Positions 2,031-46,218 of a stretch of DNA of 64,000 bases are shown here, piece by piece. The DNA lies in NCBI GenBank assembly GCA_045595165.1, contig JAZNZY010000005.1, positions 22,945-86,944 on the forward strand, in the 5' to 3' direction. The first letter of the stretch is position 1; each line of letters starts with the position of its first letter. The translations under genes were made by a program, and so were the position numbers. Source of the DNA: Eubacteriales bacterium (GTDB lineage: Bacteria; Bacillota; Clostridia; Oscillospirales; CAG-382). The notes beneath the pieces were generated by a model. The model searched no databases. It was not told the DNA's origin and was given only the letters and a program-made list of their open reading frames with translations.

Positions 2031-3832
2031 TTTTTATCTCCTTCAAAATAACTTATAATACTGTCTGCCGTCTTTTCGCTTAAGCCCTTGACCTTTAAGA
2101 GCTCCTCCCTGGTTGCCTGCTTTACGGCTTTATAGGAGCCGAAATGCCCGAGAATAGAAGCGGCGGTCTTTTCTCCTACCCCTTTTATAGCGGTGAGAGA
2201 GCTTGCGCTTACGGATTTACGGCGTTTTTTATCCATTCTATCAAGAGAAAATCTGTGGACTTCCTCTTGTATGCGGTATATGAACACGAAAAGATCCTGT
2301 CTTGCGGTAAGACCGATCTCGTTTTCTCCGTCGGTAAGAGATCGGGTTTTGTGATGCTCGTCCTTTATCATACCGAACACGGGTATGTGGGACAGTCCCT
2401 TGGAAGCGAGAACTCTTTTTGCTACGGCAACGTGCTGAACACCGCCGTCCATAAGCAGCAGATCGGGCGCATCCCATTCGCTGTGGGAAAACCTGCGCAA
2501 AAGCGCTTCTTCCGTTGCGCCGTAGTCGTTTTGGGCGAATTCTTTTATATTAAAGGTGCGGTAATGCTTTTTTGCAAACCGACCGTTTATAAGCACGGTC
2601 ATACCCGCGGTAGTATATTCTTCCCCCGAATTTGAAATATCAAAAGCCTCTATACGCTCAGGCACGGTTTCAAGCATAAGGAAAGAGGCAAGATTTGCAA
2701 GTACAGCAACGTCCTTTTCCTCCGCTTTGCGCTTGTGCAAAAGCAGTTCCTTGGCATTTGTCTGTGCCATTTCCGCAAGGGTCTTTTTATCCCCTCTGCG
2801 GGCAATTCTCAAATTTACTTTAAGACCGGAAAACTCCTTTGCCCACTGCTCGAAAAGATCAATATCTCCGTTTTCCAATTCAAAGGTAGTGTAAATATCC
2901 TTTGGAATATATCCGCGAAGGGTGTACAGCCGCTGAAGTAAAGAAACAACGGCAGAAGAATCCAATATCTCGTCTGCGCCGAAATACAGACACTCTCTAT
3001 CCGCAATAGCGCCGCGGCGAACGAAAAACAGGTTTACGGCGGAGCCCAGATCATCACGGTAAACGCCGATAAAATCTCCCTCAAACTCGGGTGCTCCTAC
3101 GATATGCTGTTTATCCCCCAAACGCTTTACGGCGTTTATACGGTCACGGTACTTAGCGGCACGCTCGTAATACATTTCCTCTGCCGCCGCGTTCATTTTC
3201 TCAGTCAATGACTTGATCAAAAAGGCATATTCACCGTTTAAAAAACGAGAAAGCTCTGAAAATATCTCTTTATATTCCCCGCTGCTTACGTTGCCCGAGC
3301 AAGGCGCCACACAAAGCCCTATCTGTGCGTTAAGACAAGGTCTTTGCTTGCCGATATCCTTGGGGAAAACACGGTTGCAGGTAGGAATACCGAAGGTGCG
3401 GCGGGCGGTATCCGCTATATTGCGCGCCACAACGTAAGAGGAAAAGGGGCCGAAATAACGGGCTTTATCATCCTCCCGCTTATACACGGTAACAAGGCGG
3501 GGGTACTCTTCATCGGTAATTTTAAGATAAGGATAGCCCGAGGAATCCTTAAGCTTTATATTATATCTGGGCATATACTGCTTTATAAACGAATTCTCAA
3601 GCAGTAATGCCTCCAGCTCGGTATCGGTATGATATACCTCAAAATCGTGGACGGAAGCCACCATACGGGCAGTCTTTCCCGTATGTGTCTGGGCAAAATA
3701 GGAGCTTACACGGTTGCAAAGCGCCTTGGATTTACCCACGTAAATGACCTTGCCTGCGCGGGAACGCATTATATACACGCCGGGAGAAGCCGGAAGCAGG
3801 CGCGCTTTTTCCAGTAATTGCTCTTTGGTCAT
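2027..3832 (-). CDS. uvrC: excinuclease ABC subunit C
   Basis: GIY-YIG N-terminus (GVYIMRSRAGKVIYVGKS), UvrBC and endonuclease regions, C-terminal HhH (IKGVGEKTAASIL). 601 aa. Confidence 0.95.
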   Translation of the reverse strand: MTKEQLLEKARLLPASPGVYIMRSRAGKVIYVGKSKALCNRVSSYFAQTHTGKTARMVASVHDFEVYHTDTELEALLLENSFIKQYMPRYNIKLKDSSGYPYLKITDEEYPRLVTVYKREDDKARYFGPFSSYVVARNIADTARRTFGIPTCNRVFPKDIGKQRPCLNAQIGLCVAPCSGNVSSGEYKEIFSELSRFLNGEYAFLIKSLTEKMNAAAEEMYYERAAKYRDRINAVKRLGDKQHIVGAPEFEGDFIGVYRDDLGSAVNLFFVRRGAIADRECLYFGADEILDSSAVVSLLQRLYTLRGYIPKDIYTTFELENGDIDLFEQWAKEFSGLKVNLRIARRGDKKTLAEMAQTNAKELLLHKRKAEEKDVAVLANLASFLMLETVPERIEAFDISNSGEEYTTAGMTVLINGRFAKKHYRTFNIKEFAQNDYGATEEALLRRFSHSEWDAPDLLLMDGGVQHVAVAKRVLASKGLSHIPVFGMIKDEHHKTRSLTDGENEIGLTARQDLFVFIYRIQEEVHRFSLDRMDKKRRKSVSASSLTAIKGVGEKTAASILGHFGSYKAVKQATREELLKVKGLSEKTADSIISYFEGDKK

Positions 3833-4255: not shown

Positions 4256-4783
4256 TTATTTTGAGGTATTCAGCTCTGAAGTTTCCTCATTCGCCGTTTT
4301 TTCCGCGTTTTCCTTGTGGGTTACGGATTTCACGGTGAGATCAAACGCTATAAGACTTCCTTCTGCAGAGATAACGTCCCCTGCGGAAATAACTCTTCCG
4401 TCCTCGAGAGAATATACTCCGTCACGATAATATCCTTCCACGGTAAGAGTGCCGAAAACCACGCTTTTTTCAAGCTCTACGTCCTCTTCATAGCTTCCGT
4501 CTTCCATTTGTACCAGCACGGGAGCAAGGGTCTTTGAAAGATTATCTGCTTTTCCAAGCAAAATATCCGTCCCTGCGATATAAATATTATCGCCCTTGGC
4601 GAAATAACTGTAAAACAGAGTGGACATAGGCTCGCTTTCGAAGGTGATCTCCATAGTAACCGTTTCCTCTCCCGAAACAAGACGGATAATATCCGCGCGG
4701 AAGAACGCACCTGCGATTATGGCTACCACCAAAATGATTATTACAAGATCAAGCACGTTGATCTTTTTAAGCTTATTCTTCAT
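4256..4783 (-). CDS. single-pass membrane protein, DUF4330-like (paralog of the next gene)
   Basis: N-terminal KKINVLDLVIIILVVAIIAG anchor followed by a beta-rich ectodomain. 11-nt overlap with the upstream gene. Family name is from memory. Confidence 0.6.
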   Translation of the reverse strand: MKNKLKKINVLDLVIIILVVAIIAGAFFRADIIRLVSGEETVTMEITFESEPMSTLFYSYFAKGDNIYIAGTDILLGKADNLSKTLAPVLVQMEDGSYEEDVELEKSVVFGTLTVEGYYRDGVYSLEDGRVISAGDVISAEGSLIAFDLTVKSVTHKENAEKTANEETSELNTSK

Positions 4784-5264: not shown

Positions 5265-7021
5265 ATTTCCTCGCCTGCCTCTCTGTCATAAATTCTGGGA
5301 AGGCTGCATAAGCAGCCGCAAACTGCCGAAAACAATAAAACGTTTTCCCATTCGCTCCATAACCCGCCGAAAAATCCGCACAGCAAAACAGAGCAAAGGA
5401 TCGCCACCGCCGAAGCGGAGGAATATCTGAACCGACCGGATATCCTGCCCGACACCGCAAAAATCCCTCGGCGCAGTACAAGAACAACGGCAACGGCAAA
5501 CAACAGGAGCAAAAGTATTCCGCCCGATATTATCAATGACGAATACAGATCGGATTGGACGGCTGAGCCGTAGCCCGCACTTCGGAAAGCAAAGGTAAAC
5601 GCCTTGTCGCCGAATCCCACGCCGGAAAAGAGATATTTCCACGCCGTGCGGGATGCGGCAGCAAAAACGGGGATCCCCGTGAACAGCTCACCTTTTATTA
5701 TTCCCGTACCGAACAGCACCAATACCGCTCCGCAGGAAACTGCGGCACCGAAAACAATACCCATACGCTTACGGAATGTGGATATAAGATACAGCGCGGT
5801 AGTGCATATGACCGCAAGATACATCCATTCCGAAAAGGTGAGCGCCGCCGCCGTATATATGGCGATACAGCAAAAAGTGCCGGATGAAAATACTCCGCGG
5901 GAAAAGGCGGTGGAAAGCGCCGCAGGCAATAAAACGGGAAGAAGTGAAGCGTATATGCTTTTTCCCGCAATATATTTGCCGAATTCTCCCAGCTCGCCGG
6001 GGAACAGATATGCAAAGATGCAACACAACGCAAGTATTAAAGCGCCGCTGCTCACAGCGCTCATAAGGCGGTAAAGCTGATCTCCGCTTCTTATGAGATT
6101 TGCACAAAGTATATACAAAACGGCTACCGTAAATACGATGATGCCGAAGTTTTCAATTCCAAAAGGTGTTACCGTTCCTACAACAAACGCAAAAACGGTA
6201 AAGAGCAAAACAAAAATATCCGCCGCGGTAAAATAAAAGTTTCGTTTTCCCACAAGCAGCTTGAACAGATAGCTTATTCCCGCCGTGAGAGCCACAAAGG
6301 CTGATACTGCAGGGGGAACGAAGGGAAGCAAAAACAACGAAATATATAATCCTCCCTCGGGAGAATATATTATAACTCCAACTGCGGCAAGCGCCAAAAG
6401 CACCAAAAGTATCTTTAACGGGGAAACAAAAAAACCGAGAATACCCGCAACGGTACCAAACAGCACCGCCCAAGCCAAACGCTTTTTGGGAGGGCGTTTT
6501 TCGTTAAGGGCAAAAGAGCTTACCCCAAACATTTCCTGCGCTACGTACGATGTAAGCGCGCTGTCACCGATACAGGTGATAAGACTGCGGCGGAAGGGCA
6601 TGAGCAACAATCCCGAAAAAGCGATAACCGCAGAATATATGAGGGAAAACATATCCTCGCCCCGTCCTGCGTAAATCTTTATGAAATACGCCGCGGCGGA
6701 ATATAACCCCGTAAAAAACAAAAACACTCCGAAACTGCCTACGGAGGTATCAAGCAAGGCTCTGCAAAGAGAAGCCGCTATGGACACAACTCGGCTCTGC
6801 TCGGCGCAAACTGCGCAAAAAGCGCGTACGCGGGAAGCCGCCTTTGCTGCTTTGTTGTATAAAGAGCCCAACGCACTGCGGGTAAACAGTGCGTCCTCTT
6901 TTAAAAGGGTGCCGTTGCCGTTATCGGCAGACACGCCATTACCGGAAAAAAAGCGCGACCAAATACGGCTCCCGCCTGTGAGCCGTGCAATATACGAGCC
7001 GATCTTGCCGCGTTTTTTCAT
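5261..7021 (-). CDS. large polytopic membrane protein (O-antigen-ligase/Wzy-like?)
   Basis: 586 aa with many hydrophobic segments. Start refined to MKKRGKIGSY (ATG 7021), which overlaps the trmD stop as ATGA. The function guess is weak. Confidence 0.55.
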   Translation of the reverse strand: MKKRGKIGSYIARLTGGSRIWSRFFSGNGVSADNGNGTLLKEDALFTRSALGSLYNKAAKAASRVRAFCAVCAEQSRVVSIAASLCRALLDTSVGSFGVFLFFTGLYSAAAYFIKIYAGRGEDMFSLIYSAVIAFSGLLLMPFRRSLITCIGDSALTSYVAQEMFGVSSFALNEKRPPKKRLAWAVLFGTVAGILGFFVSPLKILLVLLALAAVGVIIYSPEGGLYISLFLLPFVPPAVSAFVALTAGISYLFKLLVGKRNFYFTAADIFVLLFTVFAFVVGTVTPFGIENFGIIVFTVAVLYILCANLIRSGDQLYRLMSAVSSGALILALCCIFAYLFPGELGEFGKYIAGKSIYASLLPVLLPAALSTAFSRGVFSSGTFCCIAIYTAAALTFSEWMYLAVICTTALYLISTFRKRMGIVFGAAVSCGAVLVLFGTGIIKGELFTGIPVFAAASRTAWKYLFSGVGFGDKAFTFAFRSAGYGSAVQSDLYSSLIISGGILLLLLFAVAVVLVLRRGIFAVSGRISGRFRYSSASAVAILCSVLLCGFFGGLWSEWENVLLFSAVCGCLCSLPRIYDREAGEEI

Positions 7022-7719: not shown

Positions 7720-7724
7720 AAATA

Positions 7725-8225
7725 TCAGCTTCCTATCCTGAGTCCTTCGTCCCTATGGACGTATATGCCCTTTTCAAGATCAACGGACACGATATATCTG
7801 TCCACCGCGGGCATAAGATATTCTTTTTCTTCCCCTGCGATATAATACAAAAATCCGCTGATCGTTTCATCAATACGGGCGAGCCTGCCCATATATTCCT
7901 CCGTATCCGCATCGTACACGGGAAGATCGATAAGATCGTCGTTATAAATTACGTCCGCGGGAAGAGCCGGATCGTAACGGTCAAAATACACCGTCCTGCC
8001 GGTAAGTACCGCGCAGGAGGTACGGTCCTCGTATCCCTCAAAAACTATAGAGGGAATATTGGGACGGTAATTAACTATTTTAAGCTTTTTTTCGCCCTTG
8101 GGATCCAGATAGAGATATTCTACTCCGTCAAGATAATCGGGGCTGTCACACCAGCAGGAAAATTTCAGTTCCCCTTTTATACCGCGGGGAGAATTAAGCC
8201 TGCCTGCTTCCAAAAATCTTTTCAT
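7725..8225 (-). CDS. rimM: 16S rRNA processing protein RimM
   Basis: GRLNSPRGIKGELKF N-terminus and PRC-barrel-like C-terminus. Sits at the operon position between the KH protein and trmD. Confidence 0.9.
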   Translation of the reverse strand: MKRFLEAGRLNSPRGIKGELKFSCWCDSPDYLDGVEYLYLDPKGEKKLKIVNYRPNIPSIVFEGYEDRTSCAVLTGRTVYFDRYDPALPADVIYNDDLIDLPVYDADTEEYMGRLARIDETISGFLYYIAGEEKEYLMPAVDRYIVSVDLEKGIYVHRDEGLRIGS

Positions 8226-8780: not shown

Positions 8781-8853
8781 GATGTTTTTCCTCCATAAAG
8801 GTTGTTTTTTATTTTTATTTTTTATTTTTTCTTAATTGGTGGGGTGTTTTTTC

Positions 8854-8947
8854 GGGGTCCCCACAAAAGCGTGTTTTCGTGATATGTTTCGTCCGTTGCC
8901 GGCGTTTCGTGAAACGCCCCTACGTAATCAAAAAACCTTTTGTGGGG
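8854..8947 (+). repeat. GGGGTCCCC-hairpin element, long copy 1a
   Basis: GGGGTCCCCACAAAAGCGTGTTTT ... AATCAAAAAACCTTTTGTGGGG. The ends pair (CCCCACAAAAG/CTTTTGTGGGG) and the core holds an inner hairpin GGCGTTTC-gtg-GAAACGCC. Confidence 0.7.
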
Positions 8948-8957
8948 TGAATATTTC

Positions 8958-8989
8958 GGGGTCCCCACAAAACCTGCGGTTTTGCGGGG
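8958..8989 (+). repeat. GGGGTCCCC-hairpin element, short copy 1b
   Basis: GGGGTCCCCACAAAACC-tgc-GGTTTTGCGGGG. Confidence 0.65.
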
Positions 8990-8995
8990 TGGTAA

Positions 8996-28602: not shown

Positions 28603-28689
28603 TGGTGCCGGTGGCGGGGGTCGAACCCGCACGGTATCGCTACCACTGGATTTTGAGTCCAGCACGTCTGCCAATTCCATCACACCGGC
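28603..28689 (-). tRNA. tRNA-Leu (anticodon CAA), CCA encoded
   Basis: Hand-folded from GCCGGTGTGATGGAATTGGCAGACGTGCTGGACTCAAAATCCAGTGGTAGCGATACCGTGCGGGTTCGACCCCCGCCACCGGCACCA. 7-bp acceptor stem, anticodon stem CTGGA/TCCAG with loop CTCAAAA, long variable arm GGTA/TACC, T-arm GCGGG-TTCGACC-CCCGC. Confidence 0.95.
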
Positions 28690-32667: not shown

Positions 32668-32671
32668 TATC

Positions 32672-32704
32672 GGGGTCCCCAAGAAGCCGGCAGGCTTGTT
32701 GGGG
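32672..32704 (+). repeat. GGGGTCCCC-hairpin element, short copy
   Basis: GGGGTCCCCAAGAAGCC-ggca-GGCTTGTTGGGG. Confidence 0.6.
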
Positions 32705-32709
32705 TGATT

Positions 32710-34314: not shown

Positions 34315-34392
34315 CCCCCAAGAAAGGTTTTTAGATGTGTAGGGGTGATCAAAACCTGTTATGATGGTAAAAACGCTTTCTCGGGGACCCCG
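34315..34392 (-). repeat. GGGGTCCCC-hairpin element, long copy 2
   Basis: The reverse complement reads GGGGTCCCCGAGAAAGCGTTTTTA...ATCTAAAAACCTTTCTTGGGG. Both ends are near-identical to copy 3; the core differs. Confidence 0.75.
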
Positions 34393-34430
34393 AAAAAAAC
34401 ACCCCAAGAAACACACAAAAATACGTAAAA

Positions 34431-39336: not shown

Positions 39337-39339
39337 ATT

Positions 39340-39414
39340 GGGGTCCCCGAGAAAGCGTTTTTAATATCGTAGCTTTGTCTGTTGCGAAATACAAATCTAA
39401 AAACCTTTCTTGGG
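39340..39414 (+). repeat. GGGGTCCCC-hairpin element, long copy 3
   Basis: GGGGTCCCCGAGAAAGCGTTTTTA...ATCTAAAAACCTTTCTTGGG. Confidence 0.75.
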
Positions 39415-42270: not shown

Positions 42271-43563
42271 ATGATCGTTTTGTTTGAGATTGCAGTTGCG
42301 CTTTTTGCAGGACTTCTTATGTCCCGTCCCGCAAAGAAGCTCGGTCTTCCCGCTGTAACCGGTTATCTTATTGCAGGTCTGCTTATAGGTCCTTTCGTTC
42401 TGGGCAGACTGGGCGTGGAAGGCTTGGGATTTACCACGGGCGAACACGTTGAGGCGCTGAGCATTATCTCCGACGTGGCTTTGGGCTTTATCGCTTTTGC
42501 TATCGGTAACGAATTCCGCGTTTCCCAGCTTAAACAGATAGGCAAGCAGGCAACTGTAATTGCCATTTTCCAGGCGGTTACCGCAACCATATTCGTTGAT
42601 GCGGCGCTTATAGGACTTCATTTCCTTATGCCCGATAAGCTTTCTATTGCCACCGCCATTACTCTGGGTGCAATAGCTACCGCCACCGCACCTGCCGCTA
42701 CCTTGATGGTTGTTAACCAGTACAAGGCAAAGGGTAAGCTTACCGACATTCTGCTTCCCATCGTTGCTTTGGACGACGCTGTGGGTCTGATCGTGTTTGC
42801 GGTATCCTTCGGTATTGCAAAAGCCCTTAACTCCGGCGCGGCGCTCAGCATCTTTACCGTTGCGATAAATCCGCTTATCGAGATCATCGGTTCTCTCCTT
42901 TTGGGTACACTTATCGGTATTTTGTTCAACTTTTCCGAAAAGTTCTTCTTTTCCCGTTCCAAGCGTATGTGTATATCCATTACATACGTATTCTTGGCGG
43001 TTGCAATATCCATGCTTCATTTCCACATCCCCGGCACAGAGCTGGAGATCGGCTTCTCTCCCCTGCTGGTATGTATGATGCTGGGTACCGTGTTCTGCAA
43101 CCTGTGTGTATTCTCCGAAGAGCTTATGGCAAAGGTTGACAGATGGACAGCTCCCCTCTTCGTGCTGTTCTTCGTTATCTCCGGCGCAGAGCTTGACTTA
43201 AGCGTATTTACCGAATGGGCAGTTATCGTTATCGGCGTGGTATATATCATCTTCAGAAGCGCAGGAAAGATCTTCGGCGCAACCGTAAGTGCTAAGTTTA
43301 TGAAATGCGTTCCCAGTATTCAGAAATATCTGGGTATCACCCTCCTTCCCCAGGCGGGCGTTGCATTGGGTATGTCCGTAACCGTTGCCGCTGAATTGGG
43401 CGCAGACGGTGCGATAATAAGAAACATAGTTCTGTTCGCGGTTCTCGTATACGAGCTTTGCGGTCCTCTTATGACCAAGATTGCCCTTACCAAGGCAGGC
43501 GATATTCAGCCCAAGGAGTTGCAACCCGTAAAGCATTCGAAAGACGAAAAACCTGTTTGGTAA
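42271..43563 (+). CDS. cation:proton antiporter (Na+/H+ exchanger family)
   Basis: 430 aa, polytopic. LPAVTGYLIAGLLIGPFVLG N-terminal motif, typical of CPA transporters. Confidence 0.8.
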   Translation: MIVLFEIAVALFAGLLMSRPAKKLGLPAVTGYLIAGLLIGPFVLGRLGVEGLGFTTGEHVEALSIISDVALGFIAFAIGNEFRVSQLKQIGKQATVIAIFQAVTATIFVDAALIGLHFLMPDKLSIATAITLGAIATATAPAATLMVVNQYKAKGKLTDILLPIVALDDAVGLIVFAVSFGIAKALNSGAALSIFTVAINPLIEIIGSLLLGTLIGILFNFSEKFFFSRSKRMCISITYVFLAVAISMLHFHIPGTELEIGFSPLLVCMMLGTVFCNLCVFSEELMAKVDRWTAPLFVLFFVISGAELDLSVFTEWAVIVIGVVYIIFRSAGKIFGATVSAKFMKCVPSIQKYLGITLLPQAGVALGMSVTVAAELGADGAIIRNIVLFAVLVYELCGPLMTKIALTKAGDIQPKELQPVKHSKDEKPVW

Positions 43564-43824
43564 CTGTCTAAACTTCGCAGACCAAAAAACGCGACAGATG
43601 AAATAATGGTTTTCGAAAACCGTAGGGACAGACGTCCTCGTCTGTCCGTAACAAAATTAAAATGTAGGAATCCGTTTTTGACGGATTCCTTCTTTGTTTT
43701 TTGTCGCGTTTTTTTATAAATTTTTGCTCGGGGGGCAGTAGAATACTACAGCTCTCCGCTCGCGAAAATTGATTCTGCTTTGTTTATACAGTTCCCCGCT
43801 TCAGCAATACTCTCACTACTACAG
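43562..43824 (+). repeat. left arm of a ~260-bp structured inverted repeat
   Basis: The 18-nt end AACTGTCTAAACTTCGCA is identical to the reverse complement of 45282-45299. The 70-nt block 43726-43795 is nearly identical to the reverse complement of 45079-45147. Confidence 0.8.
43666..43702 (+). terminator. terminator after the antiporter gene (inside the left inverted-repeat arm)
   Basis: AGGAATCCGT-ttttg-ACGGATTCCT followed by TCTTTGTTTTTT. Confidence 0.75.
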
Positions 43825-43848
43825 CCGTGAGTTTTGCGAATGTTTTTA

Positions 43849-43877
43849 TTGCGGTTTCTGGATAAAACCGTTATAAT
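43849..43877 (+). promoter_or_regulatory. promoter of the cassette gene 43940-44965
   Basis: TTGCGG-17-TATAAT. Lies inside the region bounded by the inverted repeats. Confidence 0.55.
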
Positions 43878-43939
43878 TGTTTTGGGAATTGTAAACGCTT
43901 TTTTATTTTGTTATGCTGAAACCACAGGAGGAGAAAAAT

Positions 43940-44965
43940 ATGAAATATATTAATGCAAGCGAAATACTTCCGAAAGAGCTGCTTAACCAAATAAAAGTCT
44001 TTGCTGCGGGAAAATTGTTATATATTCCCGCGGACGCGGAAAAGAAGGCGTGGGGCGAAAAGACCGGCGCACGGGCGGGATATTACGCCAGAAATAGTGC
44101 AATAAAAGCAGGATTTTTAAAAGGAAAAGCGGTTGAAGTATTGGCAAACGAATATTTTCTTACTCCCGAAACCATTAAAAAAATTGTTTATGCGAAGGAG
44201 AAGAAAATGGAAAACAGACAATTTCCCGAAACAATGTTTGATTACACAATAACCCCGTCGGATGCGCCCGTACCCGTTATCCGTTTAGACAGACACCCCG
44301 TATACGATGTGGAATTCAAGGCAGGCGCAACAGCGCGCTTTGCATCGTATCCATACCCTTACAGGAGTATTGCGGACATAACCGAAGCAGCCGTTATAAG
44401 TGAAACGGAAGTGCACGGAGAAAAAGGAATGCGAATAGAGGTTATATGGAACAAGGGCGAAGAGGAATACGAAAACCGATTTGCGGTGATCTCCCAAATA
44501 AACGGAGATACCTGCAAAAATCTTGCCTGCGAAACCCGAGAAAACGGCGTAACGCAGATTCACACATTTCTTGAAGGTGAGGCTTTTTTCGAGGATTGGG
44601 GGTATGATATGCCTCTGATTATAGAAAACAGAGGGTTGATATGCAAATGCGGTAACAGCATTTCCTTTTCCGAAAGTGGCGTTTGCTCAGATGCGGTGGG
44701 AAGATATACGGTTGCGATAAACGGAAAGAAATATGACACGGTTTTGGTGATCAACGTTAGTTGTATAGATGACGGCGTTTTGACAGAGGAATATATAGAC
44801 CCCCACGGTAATTCTGTGCTGTTCCGCAGATTTGACCTCGGCACGTCCTCCCGCGTTCCCGGCGAGCCCTGTTTTAAAGAATACCTGCCCGATTCGGAGC
44901 GTGTTTTCGTTAACGGCGAAGAATTTGTTTTGTGGATAGATACCATAAACGAATACATGTGTTAA
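43940..44965 (+). CDS. protein with an HTH (Mor/CD3324-like) N-terminus and a ~245-aa uncharacterised C-domain
   Basis: GGAGG RBS. MKYINASEILPKELLNQIKVFAAGKLLYIP...LANEYFLTPETIKKIVY resembles small clostridial HTH proteins (from memory). The C-domain has no recognised motif. Confidence 0.65.
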   Translation: MKYINASEILPKELLNQIKVFAAGKLLYIPADAEKKAWGEKTGARAGYYARNSAIKAGFLKGKAVEVLANEYFLTPETIKKIVYAKEKKMENRQFPETMFDYTITPSDAPVPVIRLDRHPVYDVEFKAGATARFASYPYPYRSIADITEAAVISETEVHGEKGMRIEVIWNKGEEEYENRFAVISQINGDTCKNLACETRENGVTQIHTFLEGEAFFEDWGYDMPLIIENRGLICKCGNSISFSESGVCSDAVGRYTVAINGKKYDTVLVINVSCIDDGVLTEEYIDPHGNSVLFRRFDLGTSSRVPGEPCFKEYLPDSERVFVNGEEFVLWIDTINEYMC

Positions 44966-45049
44966 TTAAAAAAGGGACGTCGAGGCGCCGTCCCCTACGG
45001 CTTATGAACAGCCGCGGCTATAGAACTAAAAGTCTGCAGGAACTAATGT

Positions 45050-45299
45050 CTGTAGTACAAAAAGTTTCGCTCAAGCCAGGAACTGTATAAACAAAGCAGA
45101 ATGAATTTTCAGGCGCGGGGAGCTGTAGTATTCTACTGCCCCCCGACTGAAAATTTATAGAAACGCAAACTAAAAAGAAATCTGTTTACAGATTTCTACA
45201 TATAAAAAACAACAATGCGAGAGATTAACTAAAACCTCTCGCATTTGTTATTACGTATCAAACACTTTTTGCGTTTCGGTGTGCGAAGTTTAGACAGTT
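45050..45299 (-). repeat. right arm of a ~260-bp structured inverted repeat
   Basis: Matches the left arm; TACTACAG 8-mers lie at the same 73-nt spacing in both arms. Confidence 0.8.
45204..45242 (-). terminator. terminator after the ROK kinase gene (inside the right inverted-repeat arm)
   Basis: Minus strand reads GCGAGAG-gttttagttaat-CTCTCGC followed by ATTGTTGTTTTTT. Confidence 0.65.
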
Positions 45300-45303
45300 C
45301 CAA

Positions 45304-46218
45304 TCAGAGCAGCCACTGGAGGGCTGCTCCGAAGAGCCCGCAATCGCCTTTAAGCGGTGATATTACCACTTCCGCTTCGGGAAGGAGGTGGGGACGGAGG
45401 CGGGAAAGGAAGCCTTCCCCTTCGTTGGTGATGCCGCCTGCGATGATCACCAGCTCGGGCATAAAGATTTTTACTATGCTGTCAAGCGCCAGCGCGAAGG
45501 TTTCGAAATATTTATTCAAAAGATGCTGTGCTATATGACAGCCTCTTTCAGCCGCGATAAATGCGGTCTGTCCGTCAACGCCGCCCCGCTCCTCTGCCAC
45601 GGCGGCAAGAATGGATGCGGGATGGAACACCACAGCCTCTGCGGTGTTTGCGGTAAGCGCCTTGGTGGAGCAATACTGCTCGAAACATCCGTGAAGTCCG
45701 CAAGCGCAAGGCTTGGGATCGTAAATATTGATTACAAAATGTCCCAGTTCGCCTGCTCTGCCGTTTTTGCCGGTAAGAAGTTTTCCATTGCATATAATAC
45801 CGCCGCCCACGCCCGTGCCGACAGTGATCATTACAACGTCTTTTTTCCCTCTGGCAACACCTGCCAGGTATTCGCCGATAACGGCGCAGTTGCCGTCATT
45901 ATCCAGCATTGCGGGCACACCCAGAGCATCGGATATACGCTGTGCCAGAGGCAGGTCGCGGAAGGGCAGGTTGCCTGCGGTAACAACGATACCGTTTTCA
46001 CGGTCAATACGTCCTGCAGAGCCGATTCCCACACGCTCGATAGGGTATTTTTCCATTATTTCCTTTGCGGCGGCAATAATATCCTCCACAATAGCGTCCT
46101 GACCTGCGGTTACGCGGGTGCGCACCGAGGTATCGTACAGAATTTCTCTTTTTTCGCTATCGACTACACCAAGTTTTACACCGGTACCGCCGATATCTAT
46201 TCCCAAAAAGTTTGCCAT
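45304..46218 (-). CDS. ROK-family sugar kinase (glucokinase/N-acetylglucosamine-kinase-like)
   Basis: LGIDIGGTGVKLGVV ATP-binding site and ROK zinc motif CACGLHGCFEQYCS. Confidence 0.88.
   Translation of the reverse strand: MANFLGIDIGGTGVKLGVVDSEKREILYDTSVRTRVTAGQDAIVEDIIAAAKEIMEKYPIERVGIGSAGRIDRENGIVVTAGNLPFRDLPLAQRISDALGVPAMLDNDGNCAVIGEYLAGVARGKKDVVMITVGTGVGGGIICNGKLLTGKNGRAGELGHFVINIYDPKPCACGLHGCFEQYCSTKALTANTAEAVVFHPASILAAVAEERGGVDGQTAFIAAERGCHIAQHLLNKYFETFALALDSIVKIFMPELVIIAGGITNEGEGFLSRLRPHLLPEAEVVISPLKGDCGLFGAALQWLL

Follow-up and report, generated by a model that had tools for sequence, protein, structure and literature searches.

Inverted structured arms around a putative regulator gene are probably independent copies of an interspersed repeat of uncultured ruminant-gut Clostridia

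Two convergent genes for an antiporter and a ROK kinase lie in the 64,000-nucleotide stretch of contig JAZNZY010000005.1 (Eubacteriales bacterium, assembly GCA_045595165.1) that was analysed here and is called the window. The space between them, at 43562-45299, is filled by a single gene and two long, structured inverted repeats that bracket it. Does this segment move as a cassette, or do its two arms belong to the genes beside them? A sequence-only reading of the window had offered three answers: a foldback or composite element with one cargo gene, a 3'-end or terminator element placed in the sense of each flanking gene, or arrays of binding sites for the helix-turn-helix (HTH) protein encoded in the middle. 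Our analysis indicates that each arm is very probably a copy in its own right of an interspersed mosaic repeat, ~235-270 nt long and specific to a lineage of uncultured ruminant-gut Clostridia. The inverted-repeat appearance arises because the convergent antiporter and ROK genes each carry their own copy, so that the copies face each other. The second of the earlier answers thus appears essentially right as to the terminator element, with the addition that the element belongs to a genome-wide interspersed family and is not a local duplication.

The arms are structured repeats of ~270 nt in inverted orientation, at 43562-43833 on the forward (+) strand and 45041-45301 on the reverse (-) strand. 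The left arm opens inside the antiporter stop codon (TAA, 43561-43563) and the ROK stop codon (45304-45306) lies 4 nt past 45299, in agreement with the boundaries first described. The outer 18 nt, reported as identical in inverted orientation, indeed form an 18-mer, AACTGTCTAAACTTCGCA, that occurs in the window only at 43562-43579 (+) and 45282-45299 (-), against a chance expectation of 0.06; a repeat search of the window extended this outer-end pair to 26 nt at 92% identity. The similarity of an inner 70-nt block also held (63 of 70 positions identical), with its right-arm register corrected by one nucleotide to 45079-45148 in place of an end at 45147. Gap-free inverted similarity spans 123 nt at 83% (43711-43833 versus 45041-45163). 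Both arms contain the core hairpin, the exact 25-mer GGGGGGCAGTAGAATACTACAGCTC being present at 43730 (+) and 45120 (-) and nowhere else in the window (0.00 expected). The box TACTACAG stands twice in each arm at the 73-nt spacing noted earlier (43744 and 43817, +; 45050 and 45123, -), with six matches across the window compared with 0.7 expected. At 37-42% GC versus 47% for the window, the arms fold with energies of -97.2 kcal/mol (left, z = -10.6) and -90.8 kcal/mol (right, z = -11.3) relative to dinucleotide shuffles, and the hairpins and outer stem of the earlier description are present in these minimum-free-energy folds.

Read in the sense of the upstream gene, one unit of ~235-270 nt is composed, in order, of the stop codon, box A, the 5' strand of P2, hairpin H1, hairpin H2 with a T-run, the 3' strand of P2, P3, box A' and a tail. 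Box A is ~20-25 nt long and falls into several subfamilies (GGAACTGTCTAAACTGCGCAGA, GCTCGGTAAAAGCACTGTAGA, GCTCGGCAGAATAACGCAGAAC, ACGTGTTCATTTAGCGCAGAAC and others); box A' is its inverted copy, and pairing of the two forms the closing helix P1. P2 is an A-rich/T-rich stem (5' strand CGAAACGCAAAA, 3' strand TTTTGCGTTTC) that encloses both the variable H1 and H2, the latter followed by the T-run. P3 is a long hairpin with a strongly conserved apex, GCAGTAG-aata-CTACAGC, and the tail, CTTCAATCAGACTTTNAGTTCTACAGACGG, is in tandem in some copies. Single copies fold independently into a closed Y, and each window arm is a complete unit alone. The features noticed at first map onto this unit: box A corresponds to the outer 18 nt, P3 with box A' to the 70-nt inner block, and P2 with H1 and H2 to the region in which architecture was kept while sequence differed. 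Of the two TACTACAG boxes, one is the 3' strand of the P3 apex and the other lies in the tail.

The left copy (43562-43833, +), in the antiporter sense, was recovered by nhmmer at 43561-43832 (E = 8.7e-52) and by a covariance-model match on P3. Its box A (43562-43581), the 5' strand of P1, pairs with box A' at 43774-43793 in the minimum-free-energy fold. P2 (43584-43714), in which 43584-43606 pairs with 43694-43714, holds a small hairpin (43608-43621), an H1 of the GTAG-tagged GTAGGG type (43622-43650, from the fold and the hairpin listing) and H2 (43666-43690), which together with the following T-tract TCTTTGTTTT scored as terminator-like. P3, supported by fold and covariation and with its apex conserved, lies at 43719-43770, and the tail at 43794-43833; the latter contains the second TACTACAG box (43817-43824) and aligns with the tail of other copies. 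The right copy (45041-45301, -), in the ROK sense, starts 2-3 nt past the ROK stop codon (nhmmer 45301-45043, E = 1.3e-76) and consists of P1 (45301-45282 with 45098-45079), P2 (45277-45268 with 45169-45160), H1 (45252-45208) and H2 (45197-45176), both scored terminator-like, P3 (45155-45104) and the tail (45078-45041), all on the - strand. It is followed by an extra, second tail module, CTGCAGACTTTTAGTTCTATAGCCGCGG (45011-45040, -); tandem tails are also found in loci L013 and L017 of the set fetched for comparison. As a side observation, some copies have the tail module GCAGACTTTGAGTTCTATAGACGGTTGT in a tandem run of two to three (L013 ~2790-2880, L017 ~7720-7800), and a further common module, CGAAAACAATTATACGGTTTTTTGCTCCGCAAAAAAC, stands past the tail in L006, L008, L015, L016, L024 and L026, where three to four heptamer repeats such as TCGTTTC or TCATTCT follow it.

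The copy-count check confirmed that the arms have copies elsewhere. An exact 21-mer of the core hairpin was found at 22 places in eight species-representative metagenome-assembled genomes (MAGs), with eight in RGIG321, five in RGIG8528 and four in RGIG7185; all eight MAGs are uncultured Clostridia, Eubacteriales or Oscillospiraceae of ruminant guts. Profile searches raised the number to ~40 copies in the fetched loci by adding ~20 diverged ones, several of them tandem or nested. The window itself holds only two, both by profile search and by the P3 covariance model with filters off. Many of the 21-mer copies sit at contig ends of MAGs, and three independent Logan assemblies of a relative (L003, L004 and L005) start at the same base, their position 1 corresponding to window 43766. 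This shared break in P3/box A' of the left unit is the behaviour expected of a genomic repeat.

Known families gave no match. A tRNA was the only Rfam match in the window at the gathering threshold, and within 43450-45400 the best score had E = 0.43 (E up to 10 allowed), far below gathering scores. No blastn match to the right arm was obtained in PLSDB plasmids or INPHARED phages, and the exact core was absent from IMG/VR viral contigs. A scan of JGI metagenomes with a P2-based gapped pattern returned 18 matches, of which only L043 is a true member. These results, with no Rfam, plasmid, phage or viral match and a single metagenome member, indicate a family that is restricted to one lineage and undescribed, and we filed it as an undescribed bacterial interspersed mosaic intergenic repeat that is not a member of any named family. 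One further locus deserves mention for its layout: in L019 (2-5613), tandem paralogues of 869 and 707 aa, 55-61% identical over ~230-aa segments, are each followed by their own repeat copies, the unit apparently having been duplicated along with its gene.

Comparison of occupied and empty sites, which had been set beforehand as the check that could refute a cassette, separated the arms from the middle gene. In L011 (RGIG8528), the antiporter and ROK genes (93% and 94% protein identity to the window) are adjacent and convergent with no gene between them, and the 593-nt spacer consists of two facing units (3164-3427, +, and 3750-3497, -) plus a 69-nt hairpin-bearing linker, so that each arm is kept without the cargo. 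L023 (RGIG321) has the antiporter-side arrangement of L011, also without cargo; it is taken as an antiporter-side empty state only, and the L021-L023 join, which would give a second complete empty site, is ambiguous since L026 starts with the same sequence. L024 (RGIG9940) likewise has no cargo and carries other modules after the ROK unit. Sites occupied by the cargo were found in L031 (86% protein identity to the window), L003-L005 (77%) and L028/L029 (72%), and on the left side only in L002 (70%). The cargo also occurs in unrelated contexts with no units nearby, in L001 (74% identical) and L032 (49%), and the similarity of L001 to the window starts at the cargo promoter, window position 43844. 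Since the arms are kept without the cargo and the cargo is found without the arms, each arm goes with the gene that it flanks, and the gene in the middle stands apart as a unit of its own.

The position of the copies relative to genes was analysed with gene calls from a codon-usage model trained on Pfam-supported genes of the window. A co-oriented gene lies upstream of 17 of the 20 copies with upstream sequence, the downstream gene is convergent in 11 of 15, and the genes upstream of copies come from at least nine families. In 21 of 24 copies, P2 begins 18-25 nt after the stop codon; two more copies fit this range after a nested ~45-nt insertion is discounted, and one open reading frame (ORF) reads 22 nt into the unit. 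A sense hairpin followed by a T-run is present in 20 of 25 copies, 12 of which have two in tandem, while an antisense one is present in seven of 25. In the window, a terminator scan marked H2 of the left copy (43666-43690, +) and H1 and H2 of the right copy (45245-45214 and 45197-45176, -), and these are the only terminator-like sites past the antiporter and ROK stop codons. On sequence grounds, the two P2 hairpins, each with a T-run behind it, have the makings of tandem intrinsic terminators, a GC hairpin and then a T/U-run in the sense of the gene, and we infer that the units may serve as terminators of their upstream genes.

Helix covariation, which the sequence-only reading had claimed from two arms, was borne out for P1, P2 and P3 across the family. 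For P3, 91% of alignment cells are paired compared with 82.5% in shuffles and 38-52% with slid partners, and there are 56 compensatory cells versus 21.9 in shuffles; none of 500 shuffles reached the paired percentage or the covariation score. Double changes at the P3 apex include GTAG/CTAC to GTAC/GTAC and CTGTAG/CTACAG to TCGTAG/CTACGA, and P2 has the matched variants GAAACGCAAA/TTTGCGTTTC, AAAACGCGA/TCGCGTTTT and AAAGCGCAA/TGCGCTTTT. For P1, the mean duplex energy of a copy's own box A and box A' is -22.3 kcal/mol, versus -12.5 +/- 4.6 when the partner comes from another subfamily, and the own partner was best in 12 of 15 copies. These per-helix tests were used in place of RNAalifold on a full-length MAFFT alignment, which returned only 24 pairs owing to misalignment of nested insertions and of the variable H1 region. 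The summed folding energies are equal on the two strands (-2270 kcal/mol sense, -2262 kcal/mol antisense), and G-U pairs in the minimum-free-energy folds are modestly commoner on the sense strand (139 versus 91), with one P3 G-U pair kept in 20 of 28 sequences. With equal strand energies and only a modest G-U excess, covariation does not decide between structure at the RNA and at the DNA level.

The gene between the arms has, as first described, its own promoter and an HTH-like N-terminus joined to a ~245-aa domain. Its promoter and 5' untranslated region (UTR; 43844-43939, +) comprise a -35 element TTGCGG (43849-43854), a 17-nt spacer, a -10 element TATAAT (43872-43877) and a ribosome-binding site (43926-43933). 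This promoter-like site is conserved upstream of homologues; beside homologues that have no arms, 43844-43939 and nothing further upstream is conserved (L001 5599-5694, 79% identical). The coding sequence (43940-44965, +) encodes 341 aa, an N-terminal CD3324-family (Mor-like) HTH followed by an all-beta C-terminal region of ~245 aa. Residues 3-83 match the CD3324 family NF040785 with 86.5 bits against a cutoff of 65, and the match to Pfam Mor is weak (15.6 versus 24.9 bits); a literature search on CD3324 returned nothing relevant. The C-terminal ~245 aa had no sequence match in Pfam, NCBIfam or the PDB. An AlphaFold2 model (predicted local distance difference test score 79.8) made this region all-beta, and Foldseek gave only weak matches (query TM-score <= 0.29) to YmcC-, LolA- and VioE-like half-barrels. 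The domain (residues 97-341, window 44228-44962) forms at least 150 clusters at 50% identity and is very often the C-terminal extension of extracytoplasmic function (ECF)-type sigma factors of ~425 aa, which makes it a candidate new regulatory domain of sigma factors. The modelled protein resembles one-component transcription regulators that carry a domain for binding a ligand or partner, and it does not look like a nuclease or recombinase; its gene looks like an independent, variably present transcription unit.

The repeats and the gene between them have both turned over. Unit identity at orthologous sites ranges from above to far below the four-fold degenerate-site identity of the adjacent gene; the ROK unit and its counterpart in L003, for example, share 50% identity, as against 68% at the four-fold sites. 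The subfamily after the antiporter is type 1 in the window and L011 and type 3 in L002 and L023; after ROK it is type 1 in the window, L021 and L024 and type 2 in L011, L003 and L028. The cargo protein is 70-86% identical among relatives versus 92-96% for the flanks, and its gene points the same way in each of the five occupied lineages (the window, L031, L003, L028/L029 and L002). Comparison of the window with L031 shows a tract of ~700 bp (43579-44278; L031 ~900-1600), from the left arm through the promoter into the HTH-coding part, that is 96-100% identical, compared with 76-92% for the flanks and only 44% for the right-arm region 44979-45171. This tract reflects either recent recombination or a constraint of unusual strength. 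The overall mosaic is compatible with gene conversion or with recombination between repeats, and also with a hot spot of accessory-gene gain and loss.

How do other explanations of the locus fare against this evidence? That the whole of 43562-45299 is a composite or foldback mobile element whose arms mobilise the cargo is suggested by the way inverted arms bracket exactly one gene and by a cargo that is patchy among close relatives and more divergent than its flanks. The empty site in L011 already contradicts it by retaining both arms, as do the arm-free homologues in L001 and L032, the former with similarity that begins only at the promoter. The arms moreover belong to a family attached to many other, unrelated genes; no target-site duplication surrounds the segment, the flanks of which continue the inverted repeat (TTGG/CCAA); and neither a transposase among the 30 window ORFs scanned nor a multi-copy, insertion sequence (IS)-like ORF among the 156 ORFs of the window and loci L006-L027 was found. 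The composite element is therefore hardly credible. Nearly as improbable is the proposal that the arms serve the encoded HTH protein as operator arrays made up of TACTACAG and other boxes of the CTACAG type. CTACAG-type boxes do occur four to five times per unit in both orientations, and the left arm, promoter and HTH-coding part are the very tract shared almost unchanged with L031. Yet, as far as motif occurrence can tell, the same boxes recur in copies behind unrelated genes far from any cargo gene and at the ROK/antiporter locus of a cargo-free MAG, cargo homologues elsewhere do without such arms, and pairing within P1 and P3, whose strands the boxes form, gives them a structural explanation.

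It would be equally surprising if the arms were recombination sites, whether of an invertible, phase-variable segment or of attC-like folded sites that capture and release a cassette, a view to which we attach next to no probability. Long inverted repeats around a promoter-bearing gene, conserved structure with variable sequence, a unit that starts at a stop codon like integron attC and gene content that differs between or beside the repeats among close relatives all speak for it. Against it stand the constant cargo orientation in the five occupied lineages, the lack of an integrase or invertase among the 30 ORFs, the single, dispersed copies after core genes with no arrays, and a unit conserved inside and varying at its outer ends, the opposite of attC. 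An invertible promoter segment was also considered and rejected. A more serious competitor, though in our judgement an unlikely one, holds that the unit is a functional structured RNA, a 3'-UTR module or 3'-UTR-derived small RNA whose Y fold is under RNA-level selection and keeps phase with the stop codon (a ribosome there might open P1, for example), and not selfish or decaying repeat DNA. It would account for the covariation of all three helices, the fixed stop-codon distance of 18-25 nt, the bias of copies to sense orientation, the sense-strand G-U excess with its recurrent P3 pair, and the upkeep of copies at orthologous sites across species. However, the predicted terminators precede P3 and box A', so that most sense transcripts would contain neither P3 nor half of P1; the two strands fold equally well; Rfam gave no match at E up to 10; and subfamilies replace one another at the same orthologous site, which fits repeat turnover better.

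The interspersed-repeat reading has its own difficulties. The census, being based on the core, favours copies that retain the exact 21-mer, and no element-free orthologous site, that is, a gene without any element, was found. At ~25 copies there was no direct repeat that could be a target-site duplication, with the stop codon plus 0-4 nt as the left flank and, on the right, either the conserved tail module or unrelated sequence. As the sequence-only reading had stated for the window, no transposase or recombinase was present among the 30 ORFs scanned, and with no transposase, target-site duplication or clean unoccupied site found, the repeat is only putatively mobile. A co-oriented upstream gene is missing for three of 20 copies, this reading does not account for the tight stop-codon phasing or for a P3 apex that hardly varies across species, and the terminator role is a prediction from consensus features. 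The predicted termination point lies upstream of part of P1 and P3, and a terminated sense mRNA would not explain their covariation. Their upkeep suggests that selection or templating acts at the level of DNA or its single-stranded form, or else on antisense or read-through RNA.

Several known repeats resemble the family in part. BOX elements of Streptococcus pneumoniae (boxA-boxB(n)-boxC) are modular intergenic repeats thought to affect co-transcribed genes (PMC3049150). Like them, the repeat described here is mosaic, has no ORF, has complementary paired terminal modules, folds tightly and varies in its internal modules (PMC3049150). It differs in having no sequence relation to BOX and in its three-way junction, its built-in terminator-like hairpins and its phasing to stop codons; moreover, BOX has a proposed mobilising IS, ISSpn2, whereas none is known for the repeat here. 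SPRITE repeats resemble terminators and show enrichment at the 3' ends of genes that converge (PMC3049150), a position and character shared by our family. A SPRITE, however, is a single long stem with a U-rich tract that is not tightly folded end to end, while the terminator-like hairpins here are only the P2 part of a unit that is closed by P1 and has a separate, conserved P3.

REPs are short GC-rich palindromes of 20-40 bp with a GTAG (or CGTC) tag at one end (PMC3733652), and a RAYT is a Y1/HUH transposase gene flanked by REP/BIME repeats (PMC2817692). The present family is similarly extragenic and mostly downstream of genes, between convergent or co-directional ORFs (PMC3733652, PMC2817692), and similarly forms mosaic hairpin clusters of alternating orientation with maintained structure. 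As in REPs, GTAG stands 5' of several hairpins, namely H1 (GTAGGG...), H2 (GGTAGGAAT...) and P3 (GCAGTAG). GC hairpins with 5' GTAGGG occur in the window at 43622-43650 (+), 44974-44998 (-) and 8890-8923 (-), and elsewhere in the L011 spacer (3440-3470) and as H1 of L003, L010, L012, L014, L017, L023 and L027. The one at 44974-44998 is a stand-alone, REP-like hairpin that adjoins the cargo stop codon and is followed by TTTTTT on the - strand; this hairpin type occupies the H1 position in other copies, such as that in L010. Most H1 hairpins (ATGCGAGAG...) are nevertheless untagged, and the conserved repeated unit is ~240 nt as against 20-40 bp for REPs. REPs also exceed 100 copies per genome and are found mostly in Proteobacteria, in contrast to the apparent tens of copies in Clostridia here. 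No RAYT was present among the window ORFs scanned and the repeat-flanked cargo is not HUH-like; a REPtron with the cargo as its transposase was rejected on the predicted fold, an HTH plus a beta half-barrel and not an HUH enzyme.

Bacterial MITEs (miniature transposable elements with inverted repeats) such as RUP, Correia and bcr1 share with the family small size, absence of an ORF, multiple copies, AT-richness, an intergenic location and paired terminal inverted repeats, the last corresponding to the 20-28-nt box A and box A' present as terminal inverted copies in each unit. Differences are that no target-site duplication was found at the copies and no partner IS is known, and that insertions are common to orthologous sites across species. 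In addition, the inner part of P1 (GCAGA/TCTGC) is conserved and its outer part is copy-specific, so that the outer terminal repeat varies while the inner one is kept, the reverse of a transposase-bound end. Integron attC sites start at a stop codon and form a co-oriented cassette array beside intI, with conserved outer cores (RYYYAAC / GTTRRRY) and a variable centre. We rejected an attC identity for copies that are single, dispersed and in both orientations, with a conserved centre and no integrase in the scanned window ORFs. Retron noncoding RNA has the same topology (an a1/a2 closing helix, msr hairpins and an msd hairpin); it was rejected as well, the units being multi-copy with no adjacent reverse transcriptase.

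For the interspersed repeat we envisage the following mechanism. The P2 hairpins would terminate transcription of the upstream gene, and the surrounding helices might stabilise the 3' end and insulate convergent units from each other. Spread and similarity of copies could come from a trans-acting, structure-recognising transposase (REP/RAYT-like or MITE-like) or from gene conversion between copies, and the repeats would then act as recombination substrates that make the intergenic region variable. More tentatively, and with considerable doubt on our part, the unit may be no decaying MITE but a structure-selected 3'-end module, functioning as RNA or as single-stranded DNA and held in phase with the stop codon, whose near-invariant P3 is recognised by a dedicated protein; candidates for this recogniser would be an RNA-binding factor or a single-strand transposase of the REP/RAYT type. 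If so, the family would represent in Clostridia a counterpart to REP/BIME systems that has a much larger, three-way-junction recognition unit, and if phasing and P3 conservation do reflect protein recognition, it would provide a tractable entry to REP/BIME-like systems outside Proteobacteria. For annotation, a false mobile-cassette call is removed and the repeated contig breaks in MAGs of this lineage are explained. The uncultured ruminant-gut Clostridia gain an undescribed, strongly structured interspersed repeat family that apparently supplies predicted terminators, phased to stop codons, to many genes, and that marks a recombination-prone spot at which an accessory regulator gene comes and goes.

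A second, smaller family was also noted. It consists of ~40-nt palindromic repeats of the form CGGGGTCCCC-AC-AAAxx...xxTTT-GTGGGGTGAT, located in the window at 8852-8995, 32670-32707, 34381-34400 and 39338-39352, and elsewhere in L003 (1255-1300), L007, L025 (~4610-4650), L014 (~2700-2745) and L019 (~5490-5535). The motif GGGGWCCCC occurs six times in the window against 0.36 expected, five of the six being intergenic. In other genomes, such small palindromes are nested in the large units, in box A', the H1-H2 linker and P3, and the one nested in P3 has CCACA duplicated at its junction. The window as a whole (1-64000) is ordinary core chromosome of a spore-forming, Clostridium-like organism, with genes for Ffh/SRP54, RimM, two SpoIID proteins, SpoIIR, an M23 peptidase, an ABC transporter and a P-type ATPase, and a tRNA at 28606-28689 (-).

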